The notes: generated by a model not told the origin, from the letters alone. DNA of 64,000 bases from Gammaproteobacteria bacterium (GCA_036396795.1 DASWKF010000084.1:71002-135001); one strand, 5' to 3'; counted from the first letter of the stretch, positions 13,155 through 61,700 are shown. Program-made: numbers and translations.

Positions 13155-14957
13155 ATGAGCCGGGCCGGATTCAGCTGCGCGCTTTCCGCGGACATCTGGC
13201 AGAGCAAGTATCGTTACCTCGACGGCGCCGTCCCGGAGGAGAGCGTCGCGGACTCTTGGACGAGGGTTGCGGGCGCGCTCAGCAAGCATGAGGCCCACCC
13301 CGAGATCTGGGAGAACCGATTCAGAGACATTCTGGACGCATTTCGATTTCTACCGGGCGGCCGGATACTGGCGGGCGCCGGCACGCATCACCGGACGACG
13401 CTTTGCAACTGCTTCGTGATGGGATTCATTCGTGACTCCATGGACGATATTTTCGAGCGGCTGAAGGAAAGCGCGCTGACCATGCAGTGGGGCGGCGGGA
13501 TCGGTTGTGACTTCTCGACCCTGAGGCCGCGTGGATCGTTGGCGCTGCAGCGTAATACGACGGCTTCCGGGCCCGTATCGTTCATGACGATCTGGGACGC
13601 GACCTGCGCCGCGCTCATGTCCACGGGCTCGAGACGCGGTGCGATGATGGGCACTCTTCGCTGCGATCATCCGGACGTTCTGGAGTTCATCGACGCCAAG
13701 CGTGTGGCCGGCGAGCTCACGAACTTCAATTTGTCGTTGCAGATCACCGATGAATTCATGACGGCTCTATCGGAGAACGGGGAATGGCCCCTCTGTTTTC
13801 CGGATGCCAAAGTCTCGAAGACGGATTCGCGTCTGCTGCAATGGCCCGGGGCGGACCGAAAGATTCCGTGCCGGATCTTCGAAAGGGTTCCGGCTCGAGA
13901 GATCTGGGCGGCCACGATGAGCGCCGCCTACGATTCGGCGGAGCCCGGCGTGTTGTTCGTCGATCAGATCAACCGCCACAACAATCTCCACTATCGAGAG
14001 CACATAACGACGACCAACCCTTGTGGCGAGATACCTTTGCCGCCGTATGGCGCCTGCGTGCTCGGCTCCCTCAATCTGACCGCATTCGTCCGGTTCGCCT
14101 TCTCCAGGCAGGCCTCGCTGGATTTACCGGAGATCGAGCGTGTTGCGATGACGGCAACCCGGCTTCTGGACAACGTGGTGGATTGCTCCGGCTTCCCGCT
14201 CGCCGCACAGAAAGCACAGGCAGCCGGAGCCCGGCGCATCGGCGTGGGAATTACCGGTCTCGCCGATGCTTTGATCATGCTGGGCCACCGCTATGATACC
14301 GATGCGGCAAGAGAGATCGCCCGAAGTGTCGTCGAGCGCGTGCGCGACGCGGCTTACCTCGCTTCGACCCAGCTCGCGGAAGACAAGGGCAGCTTTCCTT
14401 ACTTCGACAAAGACGCGTATCTCGACGGCGAGTACGTCAAGACCTTGCCCGTGTCCATCAGGGACGCCATCGCTCGGCGCGGAATTCGCAACAGCCATCT
14501 CCTGGCTATCGCACCGACGGGAACGATCAGCCTGCTGGCGAATAATATCTCTAGCGGGATCGAGCCGGTGTTCGCAATGCAAGGGCAACGAAGGATGGTG
14601 AATCGGTCCGGCGAGCTCGAGGTTCGAAAGGCCACGGACCATGCCTACCGGCTGTGGCGGGAATCCGCTGGCAGTGATGCCGCGTTGCCGTCGACGTTCG
14701 TCACGGCGAGGGAGATAACTCCGGACGCCCACCTTCAGATGCAGGCCGCGCTGCAACCGCTAGTCGACAACTCGATCTCCAAGACCATCAACGTCCCGGA
14801 GTCTATCTCGAAAGACGACTTCGAAACGATTTATCTCAAGGCTTACGAGTTGGGGCTCAAGGGTTGCACGGTCTTCCGTGACAATCCGGTGAGGGGGCGC
14901 ATACTCTCGGATCAAAATGAAGCAATGATTCCCGGCTGCCCGGTTGTTGCTCCATGA
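13155..14957 (+). CDS. nrdJ: class II (adenosylcobalamin-dependent) ribonucleotide reductase, possibly lacking the C-terminal Cys-rich tail
   Basis: [41 protein letters not shown]. The protein ends ...IPGCPVVAP directly against the broken M50 gene. Confidence 0.85.
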
Positions 14958-25573: not shown

Positions 25574-28500
25574 TTGGCCATGGGTAGAGGTTGCGATAAC
25601 GTGTCACGCATCGCTCAGACTGGAGAGTTCTTCGTCGTCGGTGGTCCGGTGCAGCCGGACCGTGCCTGCTACATCGAGCGACCTACTGACGAGATGCTCC
25701 GCCAGAGCATTCGGGATCAGCAATTCAGCTACGTCGTGGGCCCCAAGGCCAGCGGCAAGACGAGCTTGATGGCACGCACGATTCGCCGACTGCGCGCCGA
25801 GGGCCAATTGGCCGCAGTCGTCGATCTCACGCAAATAGGCGCACGCGGCGAGAGCGCCGAAGCCGGGCGCTGGTTCTACAGCATCGCCTATCGAATCGTC
25901 CGTGAGCTGAGGCTCAAGGTCGATCTGCAAACGTGGTGGCAAGACAAGAGCATCCTGATGAGCGAGCAGCGGCTCACGGAGTTCTTCTGGGAGATCGTGC
26001 TGGCGAACACCACCACGCCGGTGACTATCTTCTTCGACGAGGGAGAGCGCGCTTTGGAGTTGCCGTTCTCGCGCGAGCTTTTCGCGGCCCTGGGGGCCTG
26101 TTACGAAGGCCGGGCGACCGAGCCGGATTTCCTCAGGCTGAATTTCGTCGTGCTCGGCGTCGCGACCCCGCGCCAGCTCAGCCGCGGCCTCTCACTGCCG
26201 CTTTTCGAGGACGGGCGGGCGATCAGGCTTCAGGATTTCACCCTGGAAGAAACCCATCACCTGGCGCAGGGATTTGCGTCAGACGAGACCACAGCCAAGG
26301 ATGCGCTCGCTCGCATTCACTACTGGGTCAAGGGACACCCTTATTTGACGCAAAAGATCGCGCGCGCGGCCGCCAGACGCAACGGCACCGTCGAAAACGT
26401 CGACGCCGTCGTGCGTGAGCGATTCTTGAGCCAGGGGGCTCGCGACGAGGAGCCCTTGCTGAATCATATCTGCTCACTGTTAACCGAACGCGGGACCGTG
26501 AATCGCCGCGCGCTCGCCGAGCTGGGGAAGGTGGGCAAGGGCACCACGATCGTCGCCGACCCCGATTCTCAAGTGCACGAATTTCTCAACTTGGCGGGCG
26601 TCGTCACGACCATCGGCGACGGCTATTTGACGTATCGAAATCGCCTCTTCAAGGAAGCGTTCACGAGCCATTGGATCGGCAGCGCGCTGCCGTTCGACTG
26701 GCGTGGCTCAGCGATCGCAACCGCGGTGCTCGCCGTGATGATCCTGGTTCCTCTCTGGTATACGCAGTACTTCCCACGCCCCTACATCGACACGCTGTCG
26801 ACCGTCACCGACGATCTCGATCTCGCCTTGGAGACCCACGGCCGCTTGCGGCGTCTCCCCGGCTTTGCGGGCACTGCGGATGGCTTGCTGGCCGATGTCA
26901 TGCGCCGCCGAAGCGAGTCGGCGCAAAGCTATTCCGAGATACTCGCGGCCGACGAAGTCCTGCGCGCCCTTCCGGCTCAGACGGAGCTCGCTGATGAGAT
27001 CCTCGGGGCTTATTGGCTCAGGCGCGCGGGCGAAGCCGTGCACGGCGAGAGGCGGGACGAGGCTCTGGTGTACGCATCGCTCGCCAGCACGGGTCAAGCG
27101 GCGGCGGCGTCCGAGCTACTCAACGGCCTGATCGACGACGACTATCCCGCGTTGGCTCGGAGCTTCCGTTTCGCCGTGCGGCCGGCTCATTGGCGTGTGG
27201 ATTGGTCGATGCAGGAGCTCACGGTCGTCGATGAAGCGCAGCGCGGACAGCGTATCAGCGTCAGCGACGACGCAGCGGTGAAGAGCACGGCGAGACTGAC
27301 CGCTCTGCAGCATGTTCCCGTCAGCCGGGAGCTCGGCGTGGACGAGCCTGGATCAGCCGGCGCGTTTCTGTTCCAGATCGAGCTCGAGCACCCCGAGGAG
27401 CAGCAGATCATGATCAGCCTCGAAGCGCCGAGCGGCGCTCAAGTGAGCTTCCGCTTACCTCCGGGGGAGGCGGCCCGGCGGGAGATTCGCGTTACCGAAC
27501 GCTCCGAGCTGTCGGCGCTCGCGGACGAGGAGCGCCGCGGTGTTTGGCGGTTGACCCTCGTCGATCAGGCGGAAGGATCCGTCGGCCGCTTGTCGCGCTG
27601 GGGGCTGCTGTTCGCCGAGGAGCTGCGAGGCTGGGAGGACGTTCCGGAGCAGGGACTCGATATCCCGGATCCCGTCCGCACGGACCAGATTGACGTGGAG
27701 CTCAGCGACGACGGCCGGTTCGGCGCGGCTCGGCCCTCACGTCCGGGGGCGGTCGGGACGCTGACGCTGTGGGACCTGACGACCGGAACGCCGTTGGGCG
27801 ATATCCAGCTCGAGGCCGAGCCGAGCTTTCTCGCTTTCACTCGGGATGCACCGCGCCTGATCACGGTCGCGGGCTCGACCCTCAGGCTCTGGGACACCAA
27901 CTCCGGAGGCTCGGTCTCGCGCATCGTTACGCAGACGGAATACGTTTCCGAGCCGGCCGTCGGTCTGGACGGTGAGTACATCGCGATCGCCGAGCGACTC
28001 GAGACCGGGGGTATCCTCTACAGCCTGTTGCGGGCCGCGGACGGCGAGCTGGTTTCGAGCGTTGAAGGAATTTCCGGTGTTCGTGACTGGCTGCTGGGGC
28101 CGCGGGCGCGATACCTGATCGTGGTCGGCCCCTCCCGTCTGGTGCGCGTGATGGATCCGCGTCGTGGCGAGATGCTCTATGATCTCCCTCACCAACGCGA
28201 CACGGAGCGCATCCTGGCGTCGCCCCAAGGCGATCTCGTTCTGAGCGTCGATGCCGAGGGCGATATTTTTGTCTGGAACTTCGACGGCTCCGAAAACGGC
28301 GAGCTCGGCGGTAAGCGAGTCGGTACGACCGTGGATCCGCAAAGCGTCAGCGTGGCCGCTGACGGATCGACGATCGCCTATGAGGCGGCTCACGGACACG
28401 TCGTGGTTCGCAGCCTCATCAGCGACTCGATCCCGCTGAGCGCACGGATCCATCATGCCGATGACGGCTTGATGACGGCCGTATCGACGGACGGCCAGTC

Positions 28501-29563
28501 ATTGTTGACGGGGAGCGGATCGCTGCTACAGCTATGGCAGACGAGCGATGTTGCGCCGAGCGCCATCGTCGACGACGGCATATCGGTCATGGCGTTGGAC
28601 GCGTCTGGCCAGCTCGCCGCGCTCGGCTTTCGCGGAGGGCACGTGCAGTTGCGAACGACTGCGCAACTGCAGGAAGAAATCAATAGCGATCGTGGCATCG
28701 CCTATATCGGCCATCAAGGCGCGGTGGCGAGCATAGATGTCGACTCGGCCAACGGCGTAATCGCCAGCGGTGGGCGCGACGGATTGGTTCGCATCTGGAA
28801 TTTGGCGAGCGGCGTTCCGACTGCGCCGTTCATGCGTCACCCCGAAGGACCGATTCGCGATTTGGAGCTCAGCGGCGATGGCCGTTGGCTGGCAAGCGCT
28901 GCCGAATACAGCGCCCGCGTCTGGGGCACGGCAGACGGCGCCCTCGCGCTGGAGGTGCCGGTCAACGGCACGGCGCTTTCGGTCGGCATCGCCCCGAACT
29001 CCTCGACGATCGCGGTCGGCGACAGTGCCGGAAACTTGTTCATCGCGCCGATAGCGAGCGCCGCGCGCGCACGCTCCGGCAGGGCGCAGGATGCCGTGAC
29101 GGCATTGGCATTCACGCCGGACGGCGGGCGTCTCGCGACCGGCGACCGTTCCGGGCGCATACAGTTGTGGAACGCGTCGGCCGCGCGACCGATCGGCACT
29201 GCGCTGGTGCTGCCGCATCCGGTGCGTTGGATCGGCTTCAGCGCCGACGGCGAAGCCCTCATCGCGCAAACGGATCATTGGGTTCACCGCGTGGAGGTCG
29301 CGGCGGCGCGGCTCACCGTCACCGGCAGCCGGCTCACGCGCCTGAACGCGGCCACCGGCGCGGCCGTGCTGGGGTCCGCCGGCGAGGCGCTGAGGCTCGT
29401 CGGCGGCGGCGGTCTCGGGGCGGCCTATCTCGAAGAGGTCGACTGGCAGCAATCTTTCCAACGGCCTGGGGCGTTGAACGACGCCGTTCTCGAGCGCGAC
29501 TGGCCCCGCCTGCTCGGCCTCGAGCTCAACGAGCTGGCCGCGATCACCGGGCAAAGCTACTAG
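25574..29563 (+). CDS. AAA-like (STAND-type) NTPase / single TM / P-domain-like / WD40 beta-propeller protein, 1329 aa
   Basis: N-terminus FFVVGGPVQPDRACYIERPTDE..., then Walker A GPKASGKTS and Walker B TIFFDEGE. TM segment SAIATAVLAVMILVPLWY. GVWRLTLVDQAEGSVGRLSRWGLLF (proprotein-convertase P-domain-like). WD40 repeats GHQGAVASIDVD..GGRDGLVRIWN, AVTALAFTPDGGRLATGDRSGRIQLWN. Confidence 0.75.
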   Translation: MAMGRGCDNVSRIAQTGEFFVVGGPVQPDRACYIERPTDEMLRQSIRDQQFSYVVGPKASGKTSLMARTIRRLRAEGQLAAVVDLTQIGARGESAEAGRWFYSIAYRIVRELRLKVDLQTWWQDKSILMSEQRLTEFFWEIVLANTTTPVTIFFDEGERALELPFSRELFAALGACYEGRATEPDFLRLNFVVLGVATPRQLSRGLSLPLFEDGRAIRLQDFTLEETHHLAQGFASDETTAKDALARIHYWVKGHPYLTQKIARAAARRNGTVENVDAVVRERFLSQGARDEEPLLNHICSLLTERGTVNRRALAELGKVGKGTTIVADPDSQVHEFLNLAGVVTTIGDGYLTYRNRLFKEAFTSHWIGSALPFDWRGSAIATAVLAVMILVPLWYTQYFPRPYIDTLSTVTDDLDLALETHGRLRRLPGFAGTADGLLADVMRRRSESAQSYSEILAADEVLRALPAQTELADEILGAYWLRRAGEAVHGERRDEALVYASLASTGQAAAASELLNGLIDDDYPALARSFRFAVRPAHWRVDWSMQELTVVDEAQRGQRISVSDDAAVKSTARLTALQHVPVSRELGVDEPGSAGAFLFQIELEHPEEQQIMISLEAPSGAQVSFRLPPGEAARREIRVTERSELSALADEERRGVWRLTLVDQAEGSVGRLSRWGLLFAEELRGWEDVPEQGLDIPDPVRTDQIDVELSDDGRFGAARPSRPGAVGTLTLWDLTTGTPLGDIQLEAEPSFLAFTRDAPRLITVAGSTLRLWDTNSGGSVSRIVTQTEYVSEPAVGLDGEYIAIAERLETGGILYSLLRAADGELVSSVEGISGVRDWLLGPRARYLIVVGPSRLVRVMDPRRGEMLYDLPHQRDTERILASPQGDLVLSVDAEGDIFVWNFDGSENGELGGKRVGTTVDPQSVSVAADGSTIAYEAAHGHVVVRSLISDSIPLSARIHHADDGLMTAVSTDGQSLLTGSGSLLQLWQTSDVAPSAIVDDGISVMALDASGQLAALGFRGGHVQLRTTAQLQEEINSDRGIAYIGHQGAVASIDVDSANGVIASGGRDGLVRIWNLASGVPTAPFMRHPEGPIRDLELSGDGRWLASAAEYSARVWGTADGALALEVPVNGTALSVGIAPNSSTIAVGDSAGNLFIAPIASAARARSGRAQDAVTALAFTPDGGRLATGDRSGRIQLWNASAARPIGTALVLPHPVRWIGFSADGEALIAQTDHWVHRVEVAAARLTVTGSRLTRLNAATGAAVLGSAGEALRLVGGGGLGAAYLEEVDWQQSFQRPGALNDAVLERDWPRLLGLELNELAAITGQSY

Positions 29564-50259: not shown

Positions 50260-50305
50260 CTGTGCTCGCGTGGCATGACAAACACTATTCAGGAGGATGA
50301 CGGTC

Positions 50306-50938
50306 ATGAAACTTAGGCTTGGACCGATTTTAGGAATGTTGGGCTTGGCCCCAGCGGTCTCGATGGCGCAATTCTCGGGCAACGTCGGCTATATGAGCGA
50401 CTACATCTTCCGGGGTGTGTTTCAAGAAGACTCGTCGGCCATGGGCGGGCTCGATTACGAGCACGACAGCGGATTCTACATCGGCACCTGGGCCGCGGAC
50501 GTCGGCGACGGACTGGAAACGGACCTGTACTTCGGCTATGGCGGCAGTTCCGGGGACTTCAGCTACAGCATCGGCTTCACCGGGTATTTTTACACGGACG
50601 ATTTCGATGACACCTACCAGGAAATCAATCTCGGTGTCGGCTGGGCGGGCTTGAGCTTGGATTTCGCCGCGGGCGAGTGGGACGGATTCGGCGCCTCGCA
50701 GGATTACACGTTCACGTCGCTCGGTTACGAGTTCCCGGCCGGCTTCTATATCACTCTCGGAAGCTGGGGCGATGACTTCGACGGTGACTACGCGGAGCTC
50801 GGCTACGGCTTCTCGTGGGAAGAGATCGATTTCTCGATCGCCTGGGTAAACAGCAGCGACTTTTTCGTCAGCGAAGACACATTCGCCGACAACGCGCTTA
50901 CATTCTCCATCAGCAAGTCGTTCGCGATAGGAGAGTAA
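50306..50938 (+). CDS. TorF-family putative outer-membrane porin
   Basis: AGGAGG 9 nt upstream of ATG 50306 and a signal peptide. FSGNVGYMSDYIFRGVFQEDSSAMGGLDYEHDSGFYIGTWAADV, with alternating beta-strand pattern throughout. Confidence 0.75.
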   Translation: MKLRLGPILGMLGLAPAVSMAQFSGNVGYMSDYIFRGVFQEDSSAMGGLDYEHDSGFYIGTWAADVGDGLETDLYFGYGGSSGDFSYSIGFTGYFYTDDFDDTYQEINLGVGWAGLSLDFAAGEWDGFGASQDYTFTSLGYEFPAGFYITLGSWGDDFDGDYAELGYGFSWEEIDFSIAWVNSSDFFVSEDTFADNALTFSISKSFAIGE

Positions 50939-51304
<366 letters not shown>

Positions 51305-51324
51305 GGCGGGAGGAGTAAAGCAAA

Positions 51325-52572
51325 ATGGATATCTTAGAACTCAGCTACGCACTCGATACGTTCTACTTCCTCGTGATGGGAGCGCTCGTGATGTGGATGG
51401 CTGCGGGCTTCACGATGCTCGAGGCGGGTTTGGTGCGGGCGAAAAATACCGCAGAAATCCTGACGAAGAACGTGGGGCTCTATTCGATCGCTTGCATCAT
51501 GTACATGATCTGCGGCTACGGCATCATGTATGGAGATGGTAACGGCGTCATCCCGGGAATCAGCATGCTGACTTCCGCCGATAACGCCACCGCCGACGTG
51601 CTCGCCGGCGGCGACGATGCTCCATATTATTCGAGCCTGTCGGACTTCTTCTTTCAGGTCGTGTTCGTGGCAACCGCGATGTCGATCGTGTCCGGCGCCG
51701 TCGCCGAGCGCATGAAGCTGTTCTCGTTCTTGTTGTTCGCCGTCGTCCTGACCGGAGTGATCTATCCCGTGCAGGGCTACTGGAAATGGGGCGGCGGCTG
51801 GCTCAACGAGGCCGGCTTTCTGGACTTCGCGGGCTCAGGCGTCGTGCATTTGTGCGGCGGCGCAGCGGCATTGGCCGGAGTGCTCCTGCTCGGCGCGCGC
51901 AAGGGTAAATACGGCCCGGGCGGCGAGGTTCGGGCGATTCCCGGCGCCAACCTGCCGTTGTCGGCCCTCGGCACGCTGATCCTCTGGCTGGGGTGGTTCG
52001 GCTTCAACGGGGGCTCCGAGCTCAAGATCGCCAACGTCGAGGAAGCGAACGCGGTGTCGCTGGTCATCGTCAACACCAACATGGCGGCAGCCGGCGGACT
52101 GGTCGCGGCGCTGCTGTTGGCGCGCGCCTGGTTCGGCAAGGCCGATTTGACGATGGCGTTGAACGGCGCGCTCGCGGGTCTGGTGGCGATCACGGCGGAG
52201 CCGCTCACCCCCACACCGGTGCTCGCGACGATCATCGGAGCGATCGGTGGCCTGATTGTGGTTCCGTCCATCGTTTTCCTCGACAAGGCCCTGAAGATCG
52301 ACGATCCGGTCGGCGCAATCTCCGTGCACGGCGTCGTCGGTATGTGGGGTCTATTGGCCGTGTGCCTGTCCAATCCCGATTCTTCGATCGGCGCACAGCT
52401 GCTCGGTCTGGCAACGATCTTCGCGTGGGTGTTTCTGACGAGCTTCGTGGTCTGGCTGATCATCAAGGTCATCATCGGGATCCGAGTATCCGAAGAGGAA
52501 GAATACGAAGGGGTCGATATCGGCGAGTGTGGGCTCGAGGCTTACCCCGAGTTCGCTCCCAAACCCGAATAG
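51325..52572 (+). CDS. amtB: ammonium transporter
   Basis: About 11 TMs. DFAGSGVVHLCGG, LGWFGFNGGS, DDPVGAISVHGVVG. Confidence 0.95.
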   Translation: MDILELSYALDTFYFLVMGALVMWMAAGFTMLEAGLVRAKNTAEILTKNVGLYSIACIMYMICGYGIMYGDGNGVIPGISMLTSADNATADVLAGGDDAPYYSSLSDFFFQVVFVATAMSIVSGAVAERMKLFSFLLFAVVLTGVIYPVQGYWKWGGGWLNEAGFLDFAGSGVVHLCGGAAALAGVLLLGARKGKYGPGGEVRAIPGANLPLSALGTLILWLGWFGFNGGSELKIANVEEANAVSLVIVNTNMAAAGGLVAALLLARAWFGKADLTMALNGALAGLVAITAEPLTPTPVLATIIGAIGGLIVVPSIVFLDKALKIDDPVGAISVHGVVGMWGLLAVCLSNPDSSIGAQLLGLATIFAWVFLTSFVVWLIIKVIIGIRVSEEEEYEGVDIGECGLEAYPEFAPKPE

Positions 52573-54240: not shown

Positions 54241-55773
54241 TCAGGCGTGCTCCATGCCCGGCGCTTCCTCGACGAGCCGGCCGGCCTCGATGCGCATGTA
54301 GCGGTTGAAATGCGCGCCGTTGACGGCGAGGTGAGTGGCGCAGACCAGCTGACTGCCGCGCGCGATGATCTGGTTGAGCTCCCGGGATACCAGCTCCAGG
54401 TTTCTCGGATCCAGGCCCTCCCACGGCTCGTCCAGCAGCAGCACTCTCGGTGAGCGCACGACGGCGCGGGCGATCAGAACTCGGCGGAATTGGCCGTAAG
54501 ACAATGCCTTGACGTTCCGCTCCGCCAGCGCCTGCAGATCGAAGGTTTCCAAAAGCTCTTCGACGGTGCGCTTTTCCTCGGGCTTGAGGCGTCGGGTCTG
54601 GCCGATGCTCGAATCGAAGCCCGAGGCGATGCATTGACGCACGTTGGTCGGGTACCAATAGCCGGCTTGGAGCTCGGGTGAAACCCAGGCAACCTGCTTG
54701 CGAAGCGACCAAACGTTCTCGGGGTTCGCGATACCCGGATAGCGCAGCGACCCCCCTTTGGCCGGGCGTAGCTGTCCGTGGAGAAGTCGAAGAAACGTGC
54801 TCTTGCCGGCGCCGTTCGGCCCCGTCAGCTGCCAATGCTCGCCCTCTCGTAATGTCCAGCTGACGTCGGCGAGCGCGCGGCGATGGTCCAACCACACGTC
54901 GGCGTGCTCGATCACGATGAGGGCCGGGGTGTCGCCCGCCGAGTTGCGCTTCGCAGGCGGCGTTTCTTTCAGCGGCGATGGAGCCGGCGTGAGCATCGCG
55001 ACCGTCGACGGCGCCCGCGCCTCGGCTGGAACGGGCCCGCGCTCGACGATACGGCCGTGCTCCAGGCGCAGCATGGTGTTCAGCGATGACGGTAGCCCCA
55101 CGGGCTCGTGAAACGAGCAGATGATTGTCGTCTGCCGGCTGAGCTGGTCGATCGTCTCGTCGAGCGCGCGGCGAGAACGCGGATCGAGACCCGCCGCGGG
55201 CTCGTCCAGGATCAGCACGGTCGGCTTGAACGCCAGCCCGCGCGCGATCAATACTCGCCGCTGCTCGCCGCGTGAAAGCTCGAGAAACGGCCGCTCCGCA
55301 AGATGCAGGAGCTTCAGTTGTCTTAACAGCCCGCGAGCGCGGATCCGGTCCGCCGCATTCGTTTGGCGCCGCGGCACGTCCGTTCTCGCCAGACCCGACA
55401 TCACCACGTCGACGGCATCGAAGTTCCATCCCAGGCGCGTGTACCGATCTTGCAGCTCGTGGCCGACGAGCGTGATTCTCCCGAGTGCTTCGATGGCGTC
55501 GGTCTGCGGCTCGCCGCCGAAGCGGTAGCGGCGTTTCCCTGCACCCGGCGCCGGCCAAAGCGTACCGGCAAGCAACCTCAGAAAACTCGTCTTGCCGCTG
55601 CCGTTGGGCCCTATGACGGCCCAGTGCTCACCGAGCCGCAACTCCCAATTGAGGTCGTGCAGCACCGTCTGTCCGGCAAGCGCGACGTCCACGTGCTCCA
55701 GCGTGATCAGCGGTTGGTCGGTGATGCTTGCGAGGGCCGGCGAGCCCGGGGTTGAGTCGGTCATCGCGGCCAT
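54241..55773 (-). CDS. tandem-ABC ATPase without membrane domain (ModF-like)
   Basis: Two cassettes: GPNGSGKTS...LSRGEQRRVLIARGL...LILDEP and GPNGAGKST...LSYGQFRRVLIARAV...LLLDEP. Confidence 0.8.
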   Translation of the reverse strand: MAAMTDSTPGSPALASITDQPLITLEHVDVALAGQTVLHDLNWELRLGEHWAVIGPNGSGKTSFLRLLAGTLWPAPGAGKRRYRFGGEPQTDAIEALGRITLVGHELQDRYTRLGWNFDAVDVVMSGLARTDVPRRQTNAADRIRARGLLRQLKLLHLAERPFLELSRGEQRRVLIARGLAFKPTVLILDEPAAGLDPRSRRALDETIDQLSRQTTIICSFHEPVGLPSSLNTMLRLEHGRIVERGPVPAEARAPSTVAMLTPAPSPLKETPPAKRNSAGDTPALIVIEHADVWLDHRRALADVSWTLREGEHWQLTGPNGAGKSTFLRLLHGQLRPAKGGSLRYPGIANPENVWSLRKQVAWVSPELQAGYWYPTNVRQCIASGFDSSIGQTRRLKPEEKRTVEELLETFDLQALAERNVKALSYGQFRRVLIARAVVRSPRVLLLDEPWEGLDPRNLELVSRELNQIIARGSQLVCATHLAVNGAHFNRYMRIEAGRLVEEAPGMEHA

Positions 55774-55807: not shown

Positions 55808-57409
55808 TCAGGGTTGGACAGTCGCGGCGGCGCTCGCGAGCCGCTCGGCGGAGAACGCTGCGTTCTCGCTGTAGTAGCGCACGAACCGCCGGGGCTCTGC
55901 GGCATCGTAGACCTTGAGGTTCTCCGCCCAACGAAACCCTATGCTCTGATAGTTGAGCTCGACGCGAACCTCCAAGGCCGTGCGCGCCTCGCCGAGCGGT
56001 ATTCGGTAGCCGATGAGATCCCCGGGTGCCGCGAAATCCTCGTCCGCGGAGGCGTCGCCGTGGACGGCGATATCGACGGCAGCCGTGGCTTTGTCGAAAC
56101 CGCGAGGCAACAGGCGATTGTCCTTGACGTAGCCTACGCCGCTCAGCAGGCCGGTCGTGACGCGGCCGTGCTGATCGACCATGATCGGCTCGAAGATCTG
56201 CACCTGGCTCGAGTCCGAAATCTCCAAATGATGCGGCTCGAAGCGCGCGGCGTCGTCGTCGTTGTCGTTGCCGACGATGGATCCGTCGCTGCGCATCGCG
56301 CCGGACTCGAAAATTACGCCGCCCCGGGCATCGCTGACGGTGACGTGCAGCCAGGCGCGCCGTGACGGGTAGGCGGTGGGCAGCTTGTGGCCCGCGAGGT
56401 TCTCGACGCTGACGGCGAACTCCAGCGTATCGCCCGAGACGCGCATCGCGCCTATCGAGATGCGGGCGCTCTGCGATCCGAGAAATTCACGCGCCTGCTG
56501 GGCCGCTGCCGTAAGCTCCTGCGGAAGCGCCGTGACCCCGAGCTCGGCGCGATACTTGTTGAGCATGCGCAACATGAACGCGTTGGCGCCACGGAATGCG
56601 TGCTGCGAAAAGCCGGGGCGCGGCACGCCGAGCACAGAGCTGATAGGCGTGTCCTGCGGCAGCTCCGGCATATGACAATCCTGGCAGCTTTGCGTCGACC
56701 GAAAGTCGCTGTGCTGCCATTCCTGATACGGCATTTGCTCCGCGAGCTCGCCGATTACCTCGCCATTGTCGCCGAGGGCCTGCGTATACAGCGTATGACA
56801 GGTTGCGCAGAACTCCGATTCCTTGAGATGGTCCGCCTGAGTCGGCACGAACTGAGCTGCGGAACGCATGAGCTCGCGATGTCCGAATGCGACGTCGTGC
56901 GGCCCGTAGATTTGCCGCTGTTGCGGCGGCGCTAGGGTGTCGATCCGGAAGCCGCCGTCGAAGCTGTCGTGCTCGCCGAAATTGTCGCTGCGAACCTGGT
57001 GGCATACCGTGCAGGAGACGCCGTCCAACGCCAGCCCGTCGGCGAGACTCTCGAACACCCGCCCTTGTCCGCCGGTGGCCGCGGCGCTGAAGCGCGCCAT
57101 GGGCATGTGACAAGTCGAGCACTTGTCCTCGATGGCAGCTTGCGCTTGCGGGTGATCGAGGATCTCGCGTCTGACGCCGGCCTGCCAATACGGGTCGCGG
57201 GCGGCGTTGGCCATCATCGACGCGCGCCAAGCGTAACCGATCGAGACGTCCTCGCCCGCCGGACTCGTGAGGTTGCTGTGACACGCGATGCATTCCGACG
57301 ATGCGGCGAACAGCGCGACGCCTGCTGCCGGCGCGTCAACGGTTTGCGCGGCGGCGTTGGCGCACAATAGCGTAGCCCAGATCGCCGAGGTCGGCGCCGC
57401 GGCGCGCAT
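55808..57409 (-). CDS. periplasmic pentaheme c-type cytochrome (533 aa)
   Basis: Signal peptide MRAAAPTSAIWATLLCANAAAQ. Five CxxCH motifs: CIACH, CSTCH, CTVCH, CATCH, CQDCH. The C-terminal half is beta-rich (GHKLPTAYPSRRAWLHVTV). ATG 57409 overlaps the upstream stop (TGATG). Confidence 0.8.
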   Translation of the reverse strand: MRAAAPTSAIWATLLCANAAAQTVDAPAAGVALFAASSECIACHSNLTSPAGEDVSIGYAWRASMMANAARDPYWQAGVRREILDHPQAQAAIEDKCSTCHMPMARFSAAATGGQGRVFESLADGLALDGVSCTVCHQVRSDNFGEHDSFDGGFRIDTLAPPQQRQIYGPHDVAFGHRELMRSAAQFVPTQADHLKESEFCATCHTLYTQALGDNGEVIGELAEQMPYQEWQHSDFRSTQSCQDCHMPELPQDTPISSVLGVPRPGFSQHAFRGANAFMLRMLNKYRAELGVTALPQELTAAAQQAREFLGSQSARISIGAMRVSGDTLEFAVSVENLAGHKLPTAYPSRRAWLHVTVSDARGGVIFESGAMRSDGSIVGNDNDDDAARFEPHHLEISDSSQVQIFEPIMVDQHGRVTTGLLSGVGYVKDNRLLPRGFDKATAAVDIAVHGDASADEDFAAPGDLIGYRIPLGEARTALEVRVELNYQSIGFRWAENLKVYDAAEPRRFVRYYSENAAFSAERLASAAATVQP

Positions 57410-58557
57410 CACCAGCCCTCCGTCAGGCCGCCGTCGAACCAATCCCAAAGCAGGTAGAACACGAGCTGCTTGTCTCTGACCGAGGTGTCGGTGACAGGAA
57501 CGCGAACTCCGAAGTTCGCCATGACGTGTTGGCGGACATTGAGGGTGACCTGAAACTGCGGCACGAGATCCCATTGGGCAGCACCGCCGCCGCTCAAGGT
57601 CTTCGCCCCGAGCACTTCGACGATCGGTGTCCAGGCGCGACCGAAGCGTCCCCCGCTGGTCCAGGTTCTGCCGAAGGCAGCCCTGAGCACGAGCTCCTCG
57701 TCGAAACCGGACTCGACTGGGAGCTCCAGCTTGCCTTGGAACTGGACGAACGAATCTTGTGGCAGCAGCTTCGCGTACAACAGATAGGGCTCGAGCACGG
57801 CGGTGCCTTTGCCGAAGCCGCGGTCCTCGTCTCCGGTTGGGAGCACCAGCTCGCCACCTATGCTCAAGATCGATTGCGTCTCGAGGCTGTGACGTATGGC
57901 GTGTTTCAAGGCGAGGGTCAGGTCGCCGATGCCGGATTCCGTGCCGGCGGGCTCCCCGAGATCCGCGCGGGTCCAGGGTAGGCTGATCTCGATCTGGCTG
58001 CGCGGGCCGAAGCGTTGTTCCCAGGTGAAGCGCTGCGTGATCGCGTCGGCGCCCTCGGTGTCGATGGAGGTTCGAACGATGGCCTCGTCCTCGGGGAAGG
58101 CCTTTTCCGTGAACAGTGCTTTGGGAACGTTGAGCTCGCCGCGCGGCCAGTTCGTGTCCGCGCACTGGGTCCGCACATGGTCCAGGGTCCGCTGAATCTC
58201 GTCATCCGACAAGGCTTCGCCGAAAGCCGGCATCTTGCGGTCGAAGCCTCGAGCAGGCCCGCCTTCGTGAATGACGGCGAGCCAGTCGGAATCGGGCTCG
58301 CGCGCGGCGAAGTCGCAGTCGGTGAAATCGGGGACCGCCAGCTCGAAGCCGAGCTGACTGGCTGTCAAGCCGCGACCGTCGGCGCCGTGACAGGCGGCGC
58401 AGGCGGCTTCATAGAGATCATCGCCGTCGGTGCCGAATGACGTTGTGATGCTCGCCTGGGGCGGCTGTCCGTTCGTTTGCGATACCGCCAGCGCGATGCA
58501 GGAAAAAAAGGCGGCAATGAATCCATTCCGCAGAGATACGATCCGCTGGCTAGGCAT
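57409..58557 (-). CDS. class-I cytochrome c domain fused to a putative outer-membrane beta-barrel
   Basis: Signal peptide FIAAFFSCIALAVSQ. DDLYEAACAACHGADG (CxxCH) with a distal Met context RKMPAFGEALSDDEI. About 270 aa of alternating amphipathic strands follow, ending ...LVFYLLWDWFDGGLTEGW (aromatic terminus). Confidence 0.65.
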   Translation of the reverse strand: MPSQRIVSLRNGFIAAFFSCIALAVSQTNGQPPQASITTSFGTDGDDLYEAACAACHGADGRGLTASQLGFELAVPDFTDCDFAAREPDSDWLAVIHEGGPARGFDRKMPAFGEALSDDEIQRTLDHVRTQCADTNWPRGELNVPKALFTEKAFPEDEAIVRTSIDTEGADAITQRFTWEQRFGPRSQIEISLPWTRADLGEPAGTESGIGDLTLALKHAIRHSLETQSILSIGGELVLPTGDEDRGFGKGTAVLEPYLLYAKLLPQDSFVQFQGKLELPVESGFDEELVLRAAFGRTWTSGGRFGRAWTPIVEVLGAKTLSGGGAAQWDLVPQFQVTLNVRQHVMANFGVRVPVTDTSVRDKQLVFYLLWDWFDGGLTEGW

Positions 58558-58651: not shown

Positions 58652-59425
58652 TCAGGTCAGCCGTGACCACGGGAGCAGATAGTCGAGATCGCCGACCATG
58701 CCGTGCACGGCCGAGATGCGATAGACCTGTTCGAGATTCCGTCGTGTCAAGACGTCTCTCGGAGGACCGTCGGCAATGACCTCGCCCTCACAGAGAAGCA
58801 CCAGGCGATCCGGGTATCGCATCGCGAGGCTCAGGTCGTGAAGCACGGCCAGTACGCCGGTGCCCAGGCGCGCAGTATCTCGCAGGATCTCCATGACGTG
58901 CAACTGGTGATACGGATCCAGGCCTGCAACGGGCTCGTCGGCGAGCAGCAGCGGCGCTTCGACCGCTAGCGCCCGGGCGAGCAGCACCCGGGTTCGCTCA
59001 CCGCCCGAGAGCACCGTGACATTGCGGTCCGCGAGAACGTCCGCGTCGACGGCGTGCATCGCCTTGTCGACCGCACGCATGCTGGATTCCGCCGGCGGGG
59101 AGAATCCGTTGTGGTGAGGATAGCGGCCGAGCGTGACGACCGATCGTGAGGTCAACGGCCACTCGATTCTTCGGTCCTGCGGCAGATAGGCCAGCGCCCG
59201 CGCGCGTTGTCTGCCGCTCATGCGCGAAATCGGCCGGCCGTCGAGCAGCACGCGACCGGCATCCTGCTTTTGCACGCCGACCGCCACCCGCAGCAGCGTC
59301 GACTTGCCGGCGCCGTTGGGTCCAACCAGCCCCACGAGCTCGCCCGGCCGCAGCGTCAACGATACGCGATCGAGTATCGGCCGGGTCGGCCCCGCTACGC
59401 TGATCGCCTCGATCTCGAGATTCAT
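58652..59425 (-). CDS. Fe-siderophore/heme/cobalamin-type ABC transporter ATP-binding protein
   Basis: GPNGAGKSTLL, LSGGERTRVLLARAL, LLADEP. Confidence 0.9.
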   Translation of the reverse strand: MNLEIEAISVAGPTRPILDRVSLTLRPGELVGLVGPNGAGKSTLLRVAVGVQKQDAGRVLLDGRPISRMSGRQRARALAYLPQDRRIEWPLTSRSVVTLGRYPHHNGFSPPAESSMRAVDKAMHAVDADVLADRNVTVLSGGERTRVLLARALAVEAPLLLADEPVAGLDPYHQLHVMEILRDTARLGTGVLAVLHDLSLAMRYPDRLVLLCEGEVIADGPPRDVLTRRNLEQVYRISAVHGMVGDLDYLLPWSRLT

Positions 59426-59432
59426 CCCGGCC

Positions 59433-60431
59433 CTAAGAGATATACGCGGTCTTGCTGCGCGTCACCAGATAGAAGAAAAACGGAACTCCGATCAAAGCCG
59501 TTACGACGCCGAGCCTGAGCTCGCTTTGCGTCGCAATCACGCGCACGAGCACGTCGGCGGTCAACAGCAGCGCCGCGCCCCCGAGCGCGCTTGCCGGCAG
59601 CAGGCGGCTCGGCTGATAGCCGACGAGGGGGCGCAACAGATGCGGCACGACCAGGCCGACGAAGCCGATGACGCCGCTGACCGCCGTCGCCGCGCCGACG
59701 CTGCCGGCGGTGCCCAGCGTGACCAGCCAGCGCAACCGTGACATGTCGATACCGAGGCTGATGGCGGTCTCCGCGCCGAGGCTCAGCGCGTCCAGCGGTC
59801 GTGCGCTCAGCGCCAGCAGGCTCCAGCCGACGACGGTGAACGGAAGCATCAGCCACAAGTGCGTCATGCTGCGGTCGGTGATCGATCCGAGCAGCCAAAA
59901 GACGATCTCCAAGGAAGCGAATGGATTTGGCGACAAAGAAAGTGCCAACGACGTCAACGCTCCGCAGAGGCTCGATATGGCAACGCCCGCAAGAATCAAA
60001 GTCAAGGAGCGGCCCGCATGGGCAAGCGATTGCAGGATCAGCACCGCGATCAGCGACGCGGCGATTGCGAACAGTGGCAGGGTCAGCGGGTAACGCAACG
60101 ACAAGCCGGTATAGATGGCGATGACCGCGCCGAGGGCAGAGGCATTGGAAACGCCGATGATGCCGGGCTCCGCGAGCGGATTGCGCAGATAACCCTGCAA
60201 GCTCGCGCCTGACAGCGCCAGGCTCGCGCCGATCAGCGTCCCCAGCAAGGCTCTCGGTAGCCTGATCTCCCAGAGTATCAGCGAGACCGTGCTCGTCTCG
60301 CCGGATCGCAGCACGGCGATCAATTCGCCGAGACCGATCCCTGAAGGGCCGACCAGCAGCGAGCAAGCGAAAGCGAGCAGCGTCGCCAAGCTCAGACCGG
60401 CAAGTAGGCTCGGGTAAGACCACGCTCTCAC
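59433..60431 (-). CDS. FecCD/BtuC-family ABC transporter permease
   Basis: About 9-10 TMs. LWEIRLPRALLGTLIGASLALSGASLQGYLRNPLAEPGIIGVS. GTG 60431 overlaps the upstream stop (GTGA). Confidence 0.85.
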   Translation of the reverse strand: MRAWSYPSLLAGLSLATLLAFACSLLVGPSGIGLGELIAVLRSGETSTVSLILWEIRLPRALLGTLIGASLALSGASLQGYLRNPLAEPGIIGVSNASALGAVIAIYTGLSLRYPLTLPLFAIAASLIAVLILQSLAHAGRSLTLILAGVAISSLCGALTSLALSLSPNPFASLEIVFWLLGSITDRSMTHLWLMLPFTVVGWSLLALSARPLDALSLGAETAISLGIDMSRLRWLVTLGTAGSVGAATAVSGVIGFVGLVVPHLLRPLVGYQPSRLLPASALGGAALLLTADVLVRVIATQSELRLGVVTALIGVPFFFYLVTRSKTAYIS

Positions 60432-61354
60432 CACCGCGGCTCTTGCCGCGATTCGACGAGCGCCTCGCGGGCGCCGCGCAGCTGCTCGAGCGCGTCGAGA
60501 CTGTGCGGACCGCCGCATAGCCATGCGCTGTCCGGAATGTCTATCTTTGGGGTGTGCTGTAACACCGCGCGAACCGCCGGGTGACGGTGCTGCTCCGAAG
60601 CCAACGCGGGTGGATCGTCCCAAGCGTAGCCCAGATCGACCAGGTCTGGCGCGAGCAGCAATAAGGTCTCCACGCTGATGCGATTCGAAGATTCGAACCC
60701 GAGCCTGTCGCCGGACGTCGATAAGCCGGCGCGGTGAACGATGTCGGCGAGCAGGCCGGTTTGCCCCGTCGTCCAGCCGTTGGCGTCGTAGTTGACGAAC
60801 AACGGCCGCGGTCCGTCGCCGCCATAGGTCAAGCGGCCGAGCTCTTGCTCGAAGTGCCGGGTCAGCGCTTCAGCTCTAGAGGGCTCCTGCAAGACCTCCC
60901 CGAGATGCGCGATGCTCGCGATGACGTCCGTGAGCTGCTCGGCCATGGGCAGCTCGACGACGGCATAACCCAGGCGCCGCAGCACCGCCACGGTCGGGCG
61001 AAAGCCGAAGGCCCCTGTCACGATGAGGTCGGGGTTCAGCGACAGCACCTCCTCGGCGATGCCGTGGTTGAGATGCAGCTCGCCGATCTCATGCGCGATC
61101 GCCGAGGTTCTGGGATCGGCGGCGATGAACGACAAGGACGCGATGCGCGAGCGACGCGCAATCCGCCACACGAGCTGGTCGGTGCAGACGTTCATCGAAA
61201 CGATGCGTTGCGGCGGCGACGCCGCAAACGCAGAAAGCGAAGCGGTTGCGAGCAATGCGACGCCCGCGATGCGAGCGACCATCGATATCGACGAGAGCCG
61301 TGCGGCGCGTGCCGTCGAGGCTCCGCGTATTGCGATTGGGTCCGCGGCGTCCAC
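60428..61354 (-). CDS. periplasmic substrate-binding protein of the BtuF/heme-binding (class III) type
   Basis: GGAGG 7 nt upstream of GTG 61354. Signal peptide IAGVALLATASLSAFA; RIVSMNVCTDQLV and PDLIVTG. Confidence 0.8.
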   Translation of the reverse strand: MDAADPIAIRGASTARAARLSSISMVARIAGVALLATASLSAFAASPPQRIVSMNVCTDQLVWRIARRSRIASLSFIAADPRTSAIAHEIGELHLNHGIAEEVLSLNPDLIVTGAFGFRPTVAVLRRLGYAVVELPMAEQLTDVIASIAHLGEVLQEPSRAEALTRHFEQELGRLTYGGDGPRPLFVNYDANGWTTGQTGLLADIVHRAGLSTSGDRLGFESSNRISVETLLLLAPDLVDLGYAWDDPPALASEQHRHPAVRAVLQHTPKIDIPDSAWLCGGPHSLDALEQLRGAREALVESRQEPRW

Positions 61355-61504
61355 CGATACACCTCCAGTTCTTCGAGACTGGCGGCTGTCGGGTGAATGC
61401 GGCGGTTTTTCCTAAAGCGATCGCATATCGCACACCGACAGCGCTGCCGGTGTCGCCACTGCGGTGTGACCGCTCCGATGAGGTGGCCCGCCCCCCGGAT
61501 GGAC

Positions 61505-61700
61505 GACTCGACGGCAGGTCTCCTGGCTTGCGGCTCGCTGCTCGGCCCTTCGCCTTCCCAGGCGCAAACGCCCAGTGGCAGAGATTGAACGGCGAGCTAG
61601 CCGCATACAGTTGCGGGTACAGCCACGGCTTTGAGCGGTCGACGCTTGAACCGTGTTCCCTTTCAAACCCCGAAGGGGTACCGTCACGATTGACTATAGA
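61505..61700 (-). promoter_or_regulatory. cobalamin (B12) riboswitch
   Basis: The minus strand reads ...GACGGTACCCCTTCGGGGTTTGAAAGGGAACACGGTTCAAGCGTCGACCGCTCAAAGCCGTGGCTGTACCCGCAACTGTATGCGG...TCTGCCACTGGGCGTTTGCGCCTGGGAAGGCGAAGG...AAGCCAGGAGACCTGCCGTC. It contains the AAAGGGAA, CCCGCAACTGTA, GCCACTG (B12 box), GGGAAGGC and CAGGAGACCTGCC elements in canonical order, about 150 nt upstream of the transporter start. Confidence 0.9.

Follow-up and report, generated by a model that had tools for sequence, protein, structure and literature searches.

A cytochrome c–outer-membrane barrel fusion paired with a pentaheme cytochrome: a putative redox station beneath the outer membrane of diverse bacteria

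To our knowledge, only two couplings between cytochromes and outer-membrane barrels are established, namely the sheathed heme wires of the Mtr/Pcc type and the fused cytochrome–porin Cyc2. In a 64,000-nucleotide stretch of gammaproteobacterial DNA (GCA_036396795.1, DASWKF010000084.1:71002-135001; hereafter the window), a first-pass annotation had proposed that a class-I cytochrome c fused to an outer-membrane-type barrel, encoded together with a pentaheme cytochrome, is a candidate porin–cytochrome electron conduit. The analysis presented here retains one part of that proposal, a cytochrome positioned at a porin and paired with a pentaheme protein, and discards the other, a heme conduit across the membrane, on the grounds of a barrel of 12 strands, conservation on the periplasmic face, the topology of FapF and the lack of a lipobox in the partner. 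The pair is widespread, strongly conserved and uncharacterized, and seems to be a redox station beneath the outer membrane rather than a wire across it; as such, it would constitute a third layout, with another barrel family and an obligate periplasmic partner. Neither this fusion nor the pair is described in the literature searched (COG4313/Phenol_MetA_deg with cytochrome, 12-strand porin–cytochrome fusions, GSU2801, and pentaheme/monoheme/barrel combinations), and public annotation of the two proteins is limited to 'mono/diheme cytochrome c family protein' and 'multiheme c-type cytochrome'.

Among the closest described systems, Cyc2 is a single polypeptide in which a signal peptide is followed by one CxxCH, close to the start of the mature chain, and by an outer-membrane barrel at the C-terminus; its heme is predicted on the periplasmic side, so that the substrate must come through the pore, and its electrons are taken by a periplasmic carrier, in Acidithiobacillus the cupredoxin rusticyanin (PMC8406198). 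The Cyc2 barrel has 16 strands, and MtrB-type sheaths have 26 (PMC8406198). In MtrAB/MtrCAB, PioAB/MtoAB and Pcc, a barrel gene stands beside a multiheme gene, and the barrels, of 18-26 strands, surround a deca- or octaheme wire, while a lipoprotein cytochrome stands on the outer side.

Smaller barrels are known from uptake and secretion systems. The COG4313 channel Pput2725 is 12-stranded, its N-terminal ~14 residues fill the lumen from the periplasmic side, and loops L2-L4 hold a conserved cluster including Pro-Thr-Gly; it resembles post-cleavage autotransporters and was judged unlikely to be a hydrophilic channel, and COG4313 channels have been linked to the uptake of hydrophobic molecules (PMC4493636). 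The Pro-Thr-Gly cluster is also present in FapF, whose N-terminal domain is periplasmic and whose plug is a hairpin entering from the periplasm; the periplasmic position of its N-terminus was determined by experiment, and FapF secretion needs this N-terminal region, which has been proposed to control plug conformation (PMC5557850).

Pentaheme cytochromes with an immunoglobulin (Ig)-like stem form a further class, also named the PHC family (PMC11976967), in which five c-type hemes in an alpha-helical cap are followed by an Ig-like beta-sandwich. Its one characterized enzyme is MccSep/ExtKL of Geobacter, a periplasmic polysulfide reductase in which heme 2 is His/Cys-ligated and the catalytic selenocysteine (Sec) comes from the Ig-like domain (10.1101/2025.11.18.688581). 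A pentaheme protein next to an outer-membrane barrel gene also occurs in ptdABCDEFG, where the pentaheme/beta-sandwich protein PtdA and the porin PtdB are followed by an FAD/NAD oxidoreductase, a tetraheme, an Fe-S, a ferric-reductase-like and a decaheme protein, and which ranges over marine Alpha- and Gammaproteobacteria, Gemmatimonadota, Acidobacteriota and Verrucomicrobiota (10.1101/2023.11.21.568154). The present pair is not Cyc2, Mtr/Pcc, MccSep or ptd, as it fails defining features of each.

The cytochrome–barrel fusion

The fusion protein begins with a basic and then hydrophobic, signal-like segment (MPSQRIVSLRNGFIAAFFSCIALAVS), which appears as a lone helix at residues 4-24 in the AlphaFold2 (AF2) model, and its homologues carry equivalent N-terminal segments that end in AxA-Q. 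A complete monoheme domain follows, with CAACH at residues 53-57 and a distal Met109 supplied by KMPAFG. Both cytochrome families of Pfam that match do so within residues 43-130, namely PF13442 (Cytochrome_CBB3; residues 43-127, 1.7e-9) and PF00034 (4.5e-5); compared with the PDB, a profile of the domain matches CcoP domains and Kuenenia c-552, and judged by its sequence the domain resembles the high-potential domains of the CcoP type. In an alignment of 85 cross-phylum fusion sequences, from which all column conservation values for this protein were derived, C53, C56, H57, M109, C81 and C132 are kept in at least 97% of sequences; Cys81 and Cys132 lie 51 residues apart.

In the AF2 model, which was built on an alignment of 59 sequences (mean predicted local distance difference test score, pLDDT, 82; predicted template modeling score, pTM, 0.76), the helical cytochrome domain extends to residue 130 and is followed by a coil at residues 131-157 (pLDDT 79-89), 12 strands between residues 158 and 371 (barrel block means mostly 80-98) and a short C-terminal tail. 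The barrel, in the C-terminal ~250 residues, matches PF13557 (Phenol_MetA_deg) above the gathering score of 22, with 25.3 bits over residues 192-357 when the whole fusion protein is searched and 27.1 bits when the barrel is searched alone, and the same family matches 10 of 16 cross-phylum barrels at E <= 0.01. A Foldseek comparison with the PDB returned FapF (5o68) as the best match (E 2.7e-8) and Pput2725 (4rl8) as the next (E 8.6e-7), followed among further 12-stranded barrels by NanC, KdgM, PcoB and the beta-domains of the autotransporters BrkA, EspP and AaaA. At the sequence level, neither the single barrel nor a 16-sequence profile of it matched any solved structure. The C-terminal tail, DWFDGGxxEGW, has a mean conservation of 0.84, and its last residue, Trp382, is kept in at least 97% of the 85 sequences; a C-terminal aromatic residue is typical of substrates of the barrel assembly machinery (BAM). 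Thus the signal-peptide-like N-terminus, the complete monoheme domain, the C-terminal barrel and the aromatic end, all of which had been described from the first reading of the DNA, hold up, and a soluble fold in place of the closed barrel, named there as the outcome that would speak against it, is not what AF2 gives.

The barrel shares several features with FapF (5o65/5o67/5o68) and COG4313 (4rl8), including 12 strands, a conserved segment ahead of the first strand, where the plug would be expected, and a PTG cluster, P240-T241-G242, at the base of the loop between strands b5 and b6; P240 and G242 reach a conservation of at least 97% and T241 comes close to invariance, and the cluster was equated with Pro119-Thr120-Gly121 of Pput2725 by position and not by residue-level alignment. 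As in FapF, a folded periplasmic domain would stand N-terminal to the plug, a coiled coil in FapF and a c-type cytochrome here. Invariant residues assigned to the lumen side by strand parity comprise E158, E180, R182, E190, D212, K218, E236, E288, R292, D330, Q334, Q336 and R352. The family differs from FapF and COG4313 in that no fap, aromatic-catabolic or sphingosine-catabolic genes lie near the fusion gene, and it is far more conserved than COG4313 proteins, whose general pairwise identity is below 20%. It qualifies as a divergent, always-fused subfamily of the PF13557/COG4313 barrels. A search with the barrel alone against 1.84 billion representatives found 732 relatives, and among those whose sequences were inspected none truly lacks the cytochrome domain: apparently unfused homologues of ~270 residues are truncated gene calls, all starting at the Met of KMPAFG. 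Likewise, apparent barrel–pentaheme fusions of at least 700 residues (P0288, P0330 and P0342; 700-750 residues) were rejected as probable frameshifted read-throughs with garbled Arg/Ala-rich stretches.

As had been supposed, the layout is unlike that of Cyc2; the differences found lie in strand number, porin type and cytochrome motifs. Cyc2 carries a 16-stranded porin of the OprO/OprP type, whereas the fusion protein has 12 strands of the FapF/COG4313 type, and OprO/OprP are not among its 50 best PDB fold matches. Where Cyc2 has a short heme peptide, the fusion has a complete class-I domain of ~95 residues with a Met ligand. The Cyc2 motifs AXPXFAR[Q/K][T/Y], five residues upstream of CXXCH, and PXL, four residues downstream (PMC8406198), are absent both around the heme motif of the fusion, GTDGDDLYEAACAACHGADGRGL, and from the family consensus. 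Furthermore, Cyc2 porins are poorly conserved and the present barrel highly so, the present partner is an obligate pentaheme protein, and the hosts are not known iron oxidizers. The single polypeptide with one N-terminal CxxCH, the heme predicted on the periplasmic side and a periplasmic electron acceptor, presumed in the case of the pair, are nevertheless common to both.

The pentaheme partner and its pairing with the fusion

The partner protein has exactly five CxxCH motifs (C40, C97, C133, C201 and C242), in line with the earlier description of a secreted protein with five such motifs and a beta-rich C-terminal half, which both the translation and the AF2 model bear out. PF22113, the domain II/IV family of MtrC/MtrF, matches it at 34.2 bits against a gathering score of 30, and PF14522, PF14537 and PF13435 also match at the domain level; two further profiles fall far below their cutoffs, with 36.8 bits against 250 for the NCBIfam equivalog NF040886 (ExtKL/MccSep; aligned to residues 72-249) and 15.4 against 209 for TIGR03507 (OmcA/MtrC). 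In the AF2 model (mean pLDDT 75; pTM 0.79), the C-terminal half is the better predicted, with most blocks at 84-97, and the heme domain is weaker, as expected because it was modeled without hemes. The sole significant PDB fold match is the pentaheme c552 (LPC) of Thermochromatium tepidum (5ze8, E 1.3e-12), whereas MtrC structures appear only at E ~0.04. In a profile search, the invariant partner motif GHKLPTAYPSRR aligns with residues 291-341 of LPC, in the Ig-like domain, at the start of which a G/P-H-x-x-P-T motif is common to LPC and the partner. The longer motif GHKxPxxYPxRRxW is invariant in the Ig-like domain of the partner and partly present in LPC, and altogether 103 partner positions are kept in at least 97% of sequences across phyla.

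The signal peptides of the partner family are ordinary and cleavable, ending in AxA-Q, and a lipobox-like string occurs in only 3 of 58 homologues; from these sequences, the partner is most likely soluble and periplasmic. Most homologues have exactly ten cysteines, all of them in CxxCH motifs, and no conserved Cys or Sec was found outside these motifs among the homologues. Beyond the five proximal histidines, H194, H270, H341 and H393 and the methionines M66, M104, M181 and M247 are kept in at least 97% of sequences, which on sequence grounds would be enough for five six-coordinate hemes, as in an electron carrier. The partner thus qualifies as a long-form member of the pentaheme/Ig-like cytochrome class. 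With LPC (5ze8), MccSep/ExtKL and PHC it shares the five c-hemes in an alpha-helical cap, the subsequent Ig-like sandwich and the soluble, periplasmic character; it differs from LPC and MccSep in being ~100-150 residues longer, in having neither a heme-ligating Cys nor a catalytic Sec/Cys, and in always being paired with the fusion.

Both proteins have thousands of full-length homologues, and the matches amount to over 5,000 protein clusters formed at 90% identity. In a scan with one genome per species, at least 577 species-level genomes carry relatives of the fusion; the best 80 of these, examined for lineage and identity, are 47-67% identical to the fusion protein of the window and come from Gamma- and Alphaproteobacteria, Gemmatimonadota, Acidobacteriota, Bacteroidota, Latescibacterota and Verrucomicrobiota, the carriers including an isolate, Fodinibius sediminis DSM 21194 (Bacteroidota). 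A protein identical to the fusion protein of the window is recorded on 10 public contigs. The pentaheme gene adjoins the fusion gene in 81 of 87 loci, drawn from at least seven phyla with identities of 50% or more. In most phyla it lies downstream and on the same strand, and in many Gammaproteobacteria it is found upstream in divergent orientation; the homologue counts together with this conserved adjacency are far beyond chance. Clustering of all neighboring open reading frames (ORFs) of the 87 loci revealed no third conserved gene, the recurrent neighbors being lineage syntenies. Three metagenome-assembled genomes (MAGs) labeled as Dehalococcoidia (L017), Acidimicrobiia (L075) and Eubacteriales (L047) also carry the pair at 50-57% identity; as these lineages are usually considered monoderm, mis-binned contigs or wrong labels are likely.

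Among the six loci without an adjacent pentaheme gene, two (L018 and L044) are on short contigs, and the other four belong to Gemmatimonadota/Longimicrobiales. In each of these four, a gene for a cupredoxin-like protein lies directly after the fusion gene (L050:2071-2655, L066:2609-3367, L076:8926-9879 and L081:9090-9899). The replacement proteins, of roughly 200-300 residues (194-317 in crude ORF calls), combine a type-1-copper-like spacing, H...C-x2-H-x2-M, with a CarboxypepD_reg-like C-terminal domain. Pfam does not recognize their copper domain; in the PDB they match, weakly, cupredoxin domains whose ligand residues line up with theirs. The fusion proteins of the same four loci keep every conserved motif. 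A cupredoxin-like neighbor is a further likeness to Cyc2, given the role of rusticyanin in Acidithiobacillus.

The ptd system is similar to the pair in that the gene for a pentaheme protein, a relative of T. tepidum c552, stands beside that for an outer-membrane barrel, and it is likewise functionally uncharacterized. However, PtdB is described as a plain porin (PtdA and PtdB were compared by description only), genes of the ptdC-G type are not conserved near the pair in the 87 loci, and the loci inspected showed no neighboring ORF with 4 or 10 CxxCH motifs. In Acidobacteria LB_ACB_1 (L045), a MAG listed as carrying ptd, the pair lies on a contig that is named differently from the listed ptd contig and is without ptdC-G.

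Some neighbors recur in subsets of loci. In some Gammaproteobacteria (L006:500-3437, L007:3272-6202 and L016:3191-5726), the pentaheme gene is followed by an uncharacterized envelope set, AhpC-TSA/Redoxin thioredoxin-like–DUF4266–DUF3570–ApbE; a DUF3300 gene follows the fusion gene in eight gammaproteobacterial loci, and a DUF2231/PSCyt1 membrane cytochrome lies nearby in five.

The fold class of the partner raises the question of whether it is a catalyst. According to this explanation, the pentaheme protein would act, in the manner of MccSep, on a small inorganic or hydrophobic compound, and the fusion would serve as its private outer-membrane channel with the cytochrome as an electron port. 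The only fold relatives of the partner belong to the LPC/MccSep class, the MccSep gene is itself clustered with a porin gene, its substrate's path across the outer membrane being unexplained (10.1101/2025.11.18.688581; PMC11976967), and COG4313 channels have a link to hydrophobic-molecule uptake (PMC4493636). The number of near-invariant partner positions is enzyme-like, and the invariant motif lies in the Ig-like domain, the very domain from which MccSep draws its catalytic Sec. Chemistry of the MccSep type itself, however, is ruled out by the lack of any conserved Cys or Sec outside the CxxCH motifs, and the score of NF040886 is far from its cutoff. In addition, the conserved His and Met residues can saturate all five hemes, and a cupredoxin-like carrier replaces the pentaheme protein in four loci in which the fusion is unchanged in its conserved motifs. 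We therefore consider a catalytic partner unlikely. A mapping of MccSep Sec325 through NF040886 was attempted and dropped, since the Ig-like region scored only 10.7-11.7 bits (E 0.07-0.14, below threshold) and the numbering may differ.

Sidedness, mechanism and competing explanations

Several lines of evidence point to a periplasmic position for the heme domain of the fusion. The C-terminus of BAM substrates is periplasmic and the barrel has 12 strands, so that the start of strand 1 should also be periplasmic, and FapF, the nearest solved architecture with an N-terminal domain, a plug and 12 strands, has a periplasmic N-domain. Conservation likewise favors the periplasmic side of the protein: its mean is 0.77 for linker, periplasmic turns and C-terminal tail taken together and 0.51 for the loops on the extracellular side (Mann-Whitney p = 4e-7), and the periplasmic turns alone still reach 0.72 against 0.51 (p = 9e-4), the extracellular loops being short and the least conserved parts of the protein. 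With a mean conservation of 0.80, the linker at residues 133-157 is among the most conserved segments of the fusion; it contains three invariant prolines and no helix is modeled there. By analogy with the place taken by the N-terminal segment of Pput2725 and by the FapF plug, we infer that this linker inserts into the barrel lumen as a plug.

On the modeled geometry, a chain of hemes crossing the outer membrane is excluded, because the barrel is 12-stranded and plugged, the sole heme of the fusion would sit on the periplasmic side, within a globular domain, and the partner appears soluble. With the MtrAB/MtrCAB, PioAB/MtoAB and Pcc systems the pair has in common the barrel gene beside a multiheme gene and, through PF22113, a domain match to MtrC/MtrF; unlike those systems, it has a plugged barrel of 12 strands and a soluble partner, which is neither of the MtrA/DmsE type nor an extracellular lipoprotein cytochrome like MtrC/OmcA, and nothing is predicted outside the cell. 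A true conduit across the outer membrane could still be pictured, in one variant with the cytochrome exposed on the surface, autotransporter-like, with the linker running through the lumen and the pentaheme protein feeding it from inside. The order of N-terminal domain, linker and 12-stranded C-terminal barrel is also the layout of type Va autotransporters, BrkA, EspP and AaaA are among the fold matches, Pput2725 resembles post-cleavage autotransporters (PMC4493636), aromatic residues are invariant in the linker and lumen (W137, F270, W309, Y368 and W371), and PF22113 exceeds its gathering score on the partner. However, 12 strands cannot house the heme domain, and the gap from an outside heme to a periplasmic heme would exceed the membrane thickness with no cofactor between. 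The linker is modeled as a proline-rich coil and not as the helix of an autotransporter, and the passenger would be heme-loaded; covalent heme attachment, which takes place in the periplasm, the invariant Cys81/Cys132 pair, 51 residues apart, and the three-proline, non-helical linker together make export of the autotransporter type unlikely. The short and poorly conserved extracellular loops, the periplasmic N-terminus of FapF, the closest structure (PMC5557850), the missing lipobox of the partner and the marginal MtrC matches in its fold search point in the same direction, and a conduit is accordingly very improbable.

The reading that we favor, with a probability of roughly 0.4, is that the pair is a self-contained, periplasm-facing redox module on the inner face of the outer membrane, in which the logic of Cyc2 is realized on a different scaffold. 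As the heme domain is fused to the N-terminal end of the plug segment, the heme would hang at the periplasmic mouth of the channel. A small redox-active solute could reach the tethered heme through the narrow, charged and mostly acidic lumen or through a lateral PTG gate of the COG4313 type, and would exchange an electron with it; the pentaheme protein may then dock and relay or buffer electrons to the general periplasmic carrier pool, a role that the cupredoxin-like protein would take in some lineages. The partner swap, the fact that the fusion proteins stay unchanged where it has occurred, and the pentaheme protein's ligand count argue that the fusion is the functional core and the neighbor the relay. 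An inward flow of electrons, toward oxidases, is suggested by the likeness of the domain to CcoP, by the cupredoxin as an alternative partner and by hosts that are for the most part aerobic, so that the most likely direction would be oxidation of an external reductant to feed the aerobic chain. Candidate substrates include Fe2+ or another metal cation, at which the acidic lumen and the PcoB-like fold hint, and redox shuttles of hydrophobic or amphipathic character, for instance a hydroquinone, at which the precedent of COG4313 hints. The domain architecture, the type of barrel, the fold class of the partner and its soluble character, the conserved pairing and the partner swap are results of the analysis; the periplasmic heme domain, the linker in the lumen, electron exchange between the two proteins, and the existence, identity and direction of a substrate reaction are proposals.

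A number of observations weigh against this proposal. The gene context indicates no substrate, and the hosts belong mostly to ordinary aerobic heterotroph lineages not known to oxidize iron. Plugged 12-stranded barrels pass little, as Pput2725 illustrates (PMC4493636), and the globular heme domain, as modeled, cannot enter the pore. Judged by its relatives, of which LPC is low-potential and MccSep catalytic, the pentaheme protein could be an uphill destination for electrons from a His/Met-ligated heme. Finally, the very conserved GHKxPxxYPxRRxW motif of the Ig-like domain could be an active site and not a docking surface.

A more modest role of the barrel must also be weighed, in which it merely tethers a cytochrome c beneath the outer membrane for ordinary electron transfer in the periplasm, or in which the cytochrome senses redox state and so gates the plug of a channel for a non-redox solute. 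This would be consistent with the direct joining of the cytochrome domain to the linker/plug segment, without a spacer and at a junction that is among the best-conserved parts of the protein, with the dependence of FapF secretion on its periplasmic N-terminal region and the plug control proposed for it (PMC5557850), and with the lack of substrate-specific genes accompanying the pair. On the other hand, the dedicated multiheme or copper redox partner that adjoins the gene in nearly every genome exceeds the need of a sensor, an invariant charged lumen and PTG cluster are not needed by a mere anchor, and a barrel identity of ~50% across phyla is far above that of typical anchors or porins. An anchor or gate is thus improbable.

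Taken further, the redox-module proposal would make the fusion an unrecognized class of outer-membrane oxidoreductase that exchanges electrons with small diffusible extracellular redox species, among them Fe2+, hydroquinone/humic-type shuttles or other hydrophobic reductants, and passes them, through the pentaheme 'capacitor' or a cupredoxin, to aerobic respiration, with plug opening possibly coupled to the redox state of the heme; we regard this extension as rather unlikely. Its consequences would be considerable, as the pair is not rare, and phyla dominant in soils and sediments keep it at ~50% identity. If the substrate were iron, a humic or quinone shuttle or another common reductant, the pair would be a useful marker gene set, would change estimates of which bacteria join extracellular redox cycling, and would represent a cheap two-gene route of electron exchange for non-specialist heterotrophs among Gemmatimonadota, Acidobacteriota, Balneolales and soil or sediment Gammaproteobacteria. 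At the same time, an uncharacterized long branch of the pentaheme/Ig-like family gains a fixed physical partner, which makes the function of this branch testable in the cultured Fodinibius sediminis DSM 21194.

Gene coordinates and genomic setting

The coordinates of the two genes and their parts are collected in Table 1. The overlap of the fusion-gene stop with the pentaheme-gene start, which the first-pass annotation had noted, was read directly in the DNA; this translational coupling, together with the adjacency across phyla, supports a functional pairing of the two proteins. A reading of 785 residues at 55808-58165 was rejected as an artificial N-terminal extension of the pentaheme ORF; the high G+C content of the DNA gives rise to long spurious antisense ORFs throughout the window.

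Table 1. Positions of the fusion gene, the pentaheme gene and their features in the window
Feature	Coordinates	Strand	Evidence and remarks
Cytochrome c–barrel fusion gene	57409..58557	-	382 aa + stop; ORF, translation, PF13442 and PF13557 above gathering scores
Signal-peptide-like N-terminus	58480..58557	-	aa 1 to ~26; basic n-region and hydrophobic helix; MPSQRIVSLRNGFIAAFFSCIALAVS
Class-I c-type cytochrome domain	58162..58449	-	aa ~37-132; CAACH 58387-58401, Met109 58231-58233, Cys81/Cys132
Linker / putative plug segment	58087..58161	-	aa 133-157; WPRGELNxPxALFTEKAxPEDE; conservation 0.80
12-stranded outer-membrane beta-barrel	57445..58086	-	aa 158-371; AF2 strands, Foldseek, PF13557, strand parity
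C-terminal tail DWFDGGxxEGW with aromatic end	57412..57444	-	conservation 0.84; W382 in at least 97% of sequences
TGATG stop/start overlap	57407..57411	-	read from sequence
Pentaheme cytochrome gene	55808..57409	-	533 aa + stop; five CxxCH, PF22113, PF14522, PF14537, PF13435
Pentaheme domain	56510..57310	-	aa 34-300; CxxCH at C40, C97, C133, C201, C242
Beta-rich C-terminal half: Ig-like domain and extension	55811..56509	-	aa 301-533; G340-H341-K342-x-P344-x2-Y347-P348-x-R350-R351-x-W353 motif

As previously annotated, the pair is flanked by a B12 importer and a ModF-like ATPase, and its other surroundings contain no obvious respiratory partners. Upstream, a full-length cobalamin riboswitch (61497-61700, minus strand; 110.6 bits) is followed by BtuF-like, FecCD and ABC-ATPase genes (58652-61354, minus strand). 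Only 94 nucleotides separate the ATPase gene (btuD) from the fusion gene, no terminator-like site was found between btuD and the pair, and the pair might therefore be read through under control of the B12 riboswitch in this genome. The B12 neighborhood was nonetheless rejected as part of the module, as it is not kept in the two sister contigs and no other phylum shows the association: in L089, which is 77% identical, a cation-diffusion-facilitator gene (PF01545; L089:5756-6712), absent from the window, and a 289-nucleotide gap lie between btuD and the fusion gene, and L090, which is 71% identical, has no BtuFCD and a divergent upstream gene.

Downstream of the pair lies a gene for a ModF-like double ABC ATPase without a membrane domain (54241-55773, minus strand; L089:9854-11308; L090:4611-6065). 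It was rejected as a third component, since it occurs downstream only in the three closest gammaproteobacterial contigs, which is a lineage synteny. The ModF-like gene is followed by genes for a protein of 206-226 residues without a Pfam match and for a metallo-beta-lactamase-fold protein, an arrangement not seen in other phyla.

Ten other large ORFs of the window were examined, and none is a respiratory gene. A ribonucleotide reductase large-subunit homologue of 600 residues (13155-14957, plus strand; PF02867 at 5.8e-122) would, if it is a B12-dependent class II enzyme, explain the riboswitch-controlled corrinoid importer. Elsewhere in the window, an unrelated protein of 1329 residues (25574-29563, plus strand) combines an AAA_35 ATPase-like region, a proprotein-convertase P-domain and WD40 repeats in a STAND-like arrangement, and the gene for an outer-membrane protein of the Gcw_chp family precedes glnK (P-II) and amtB, the latter encoding an ammonium transporter (50297-52572, plus strand).

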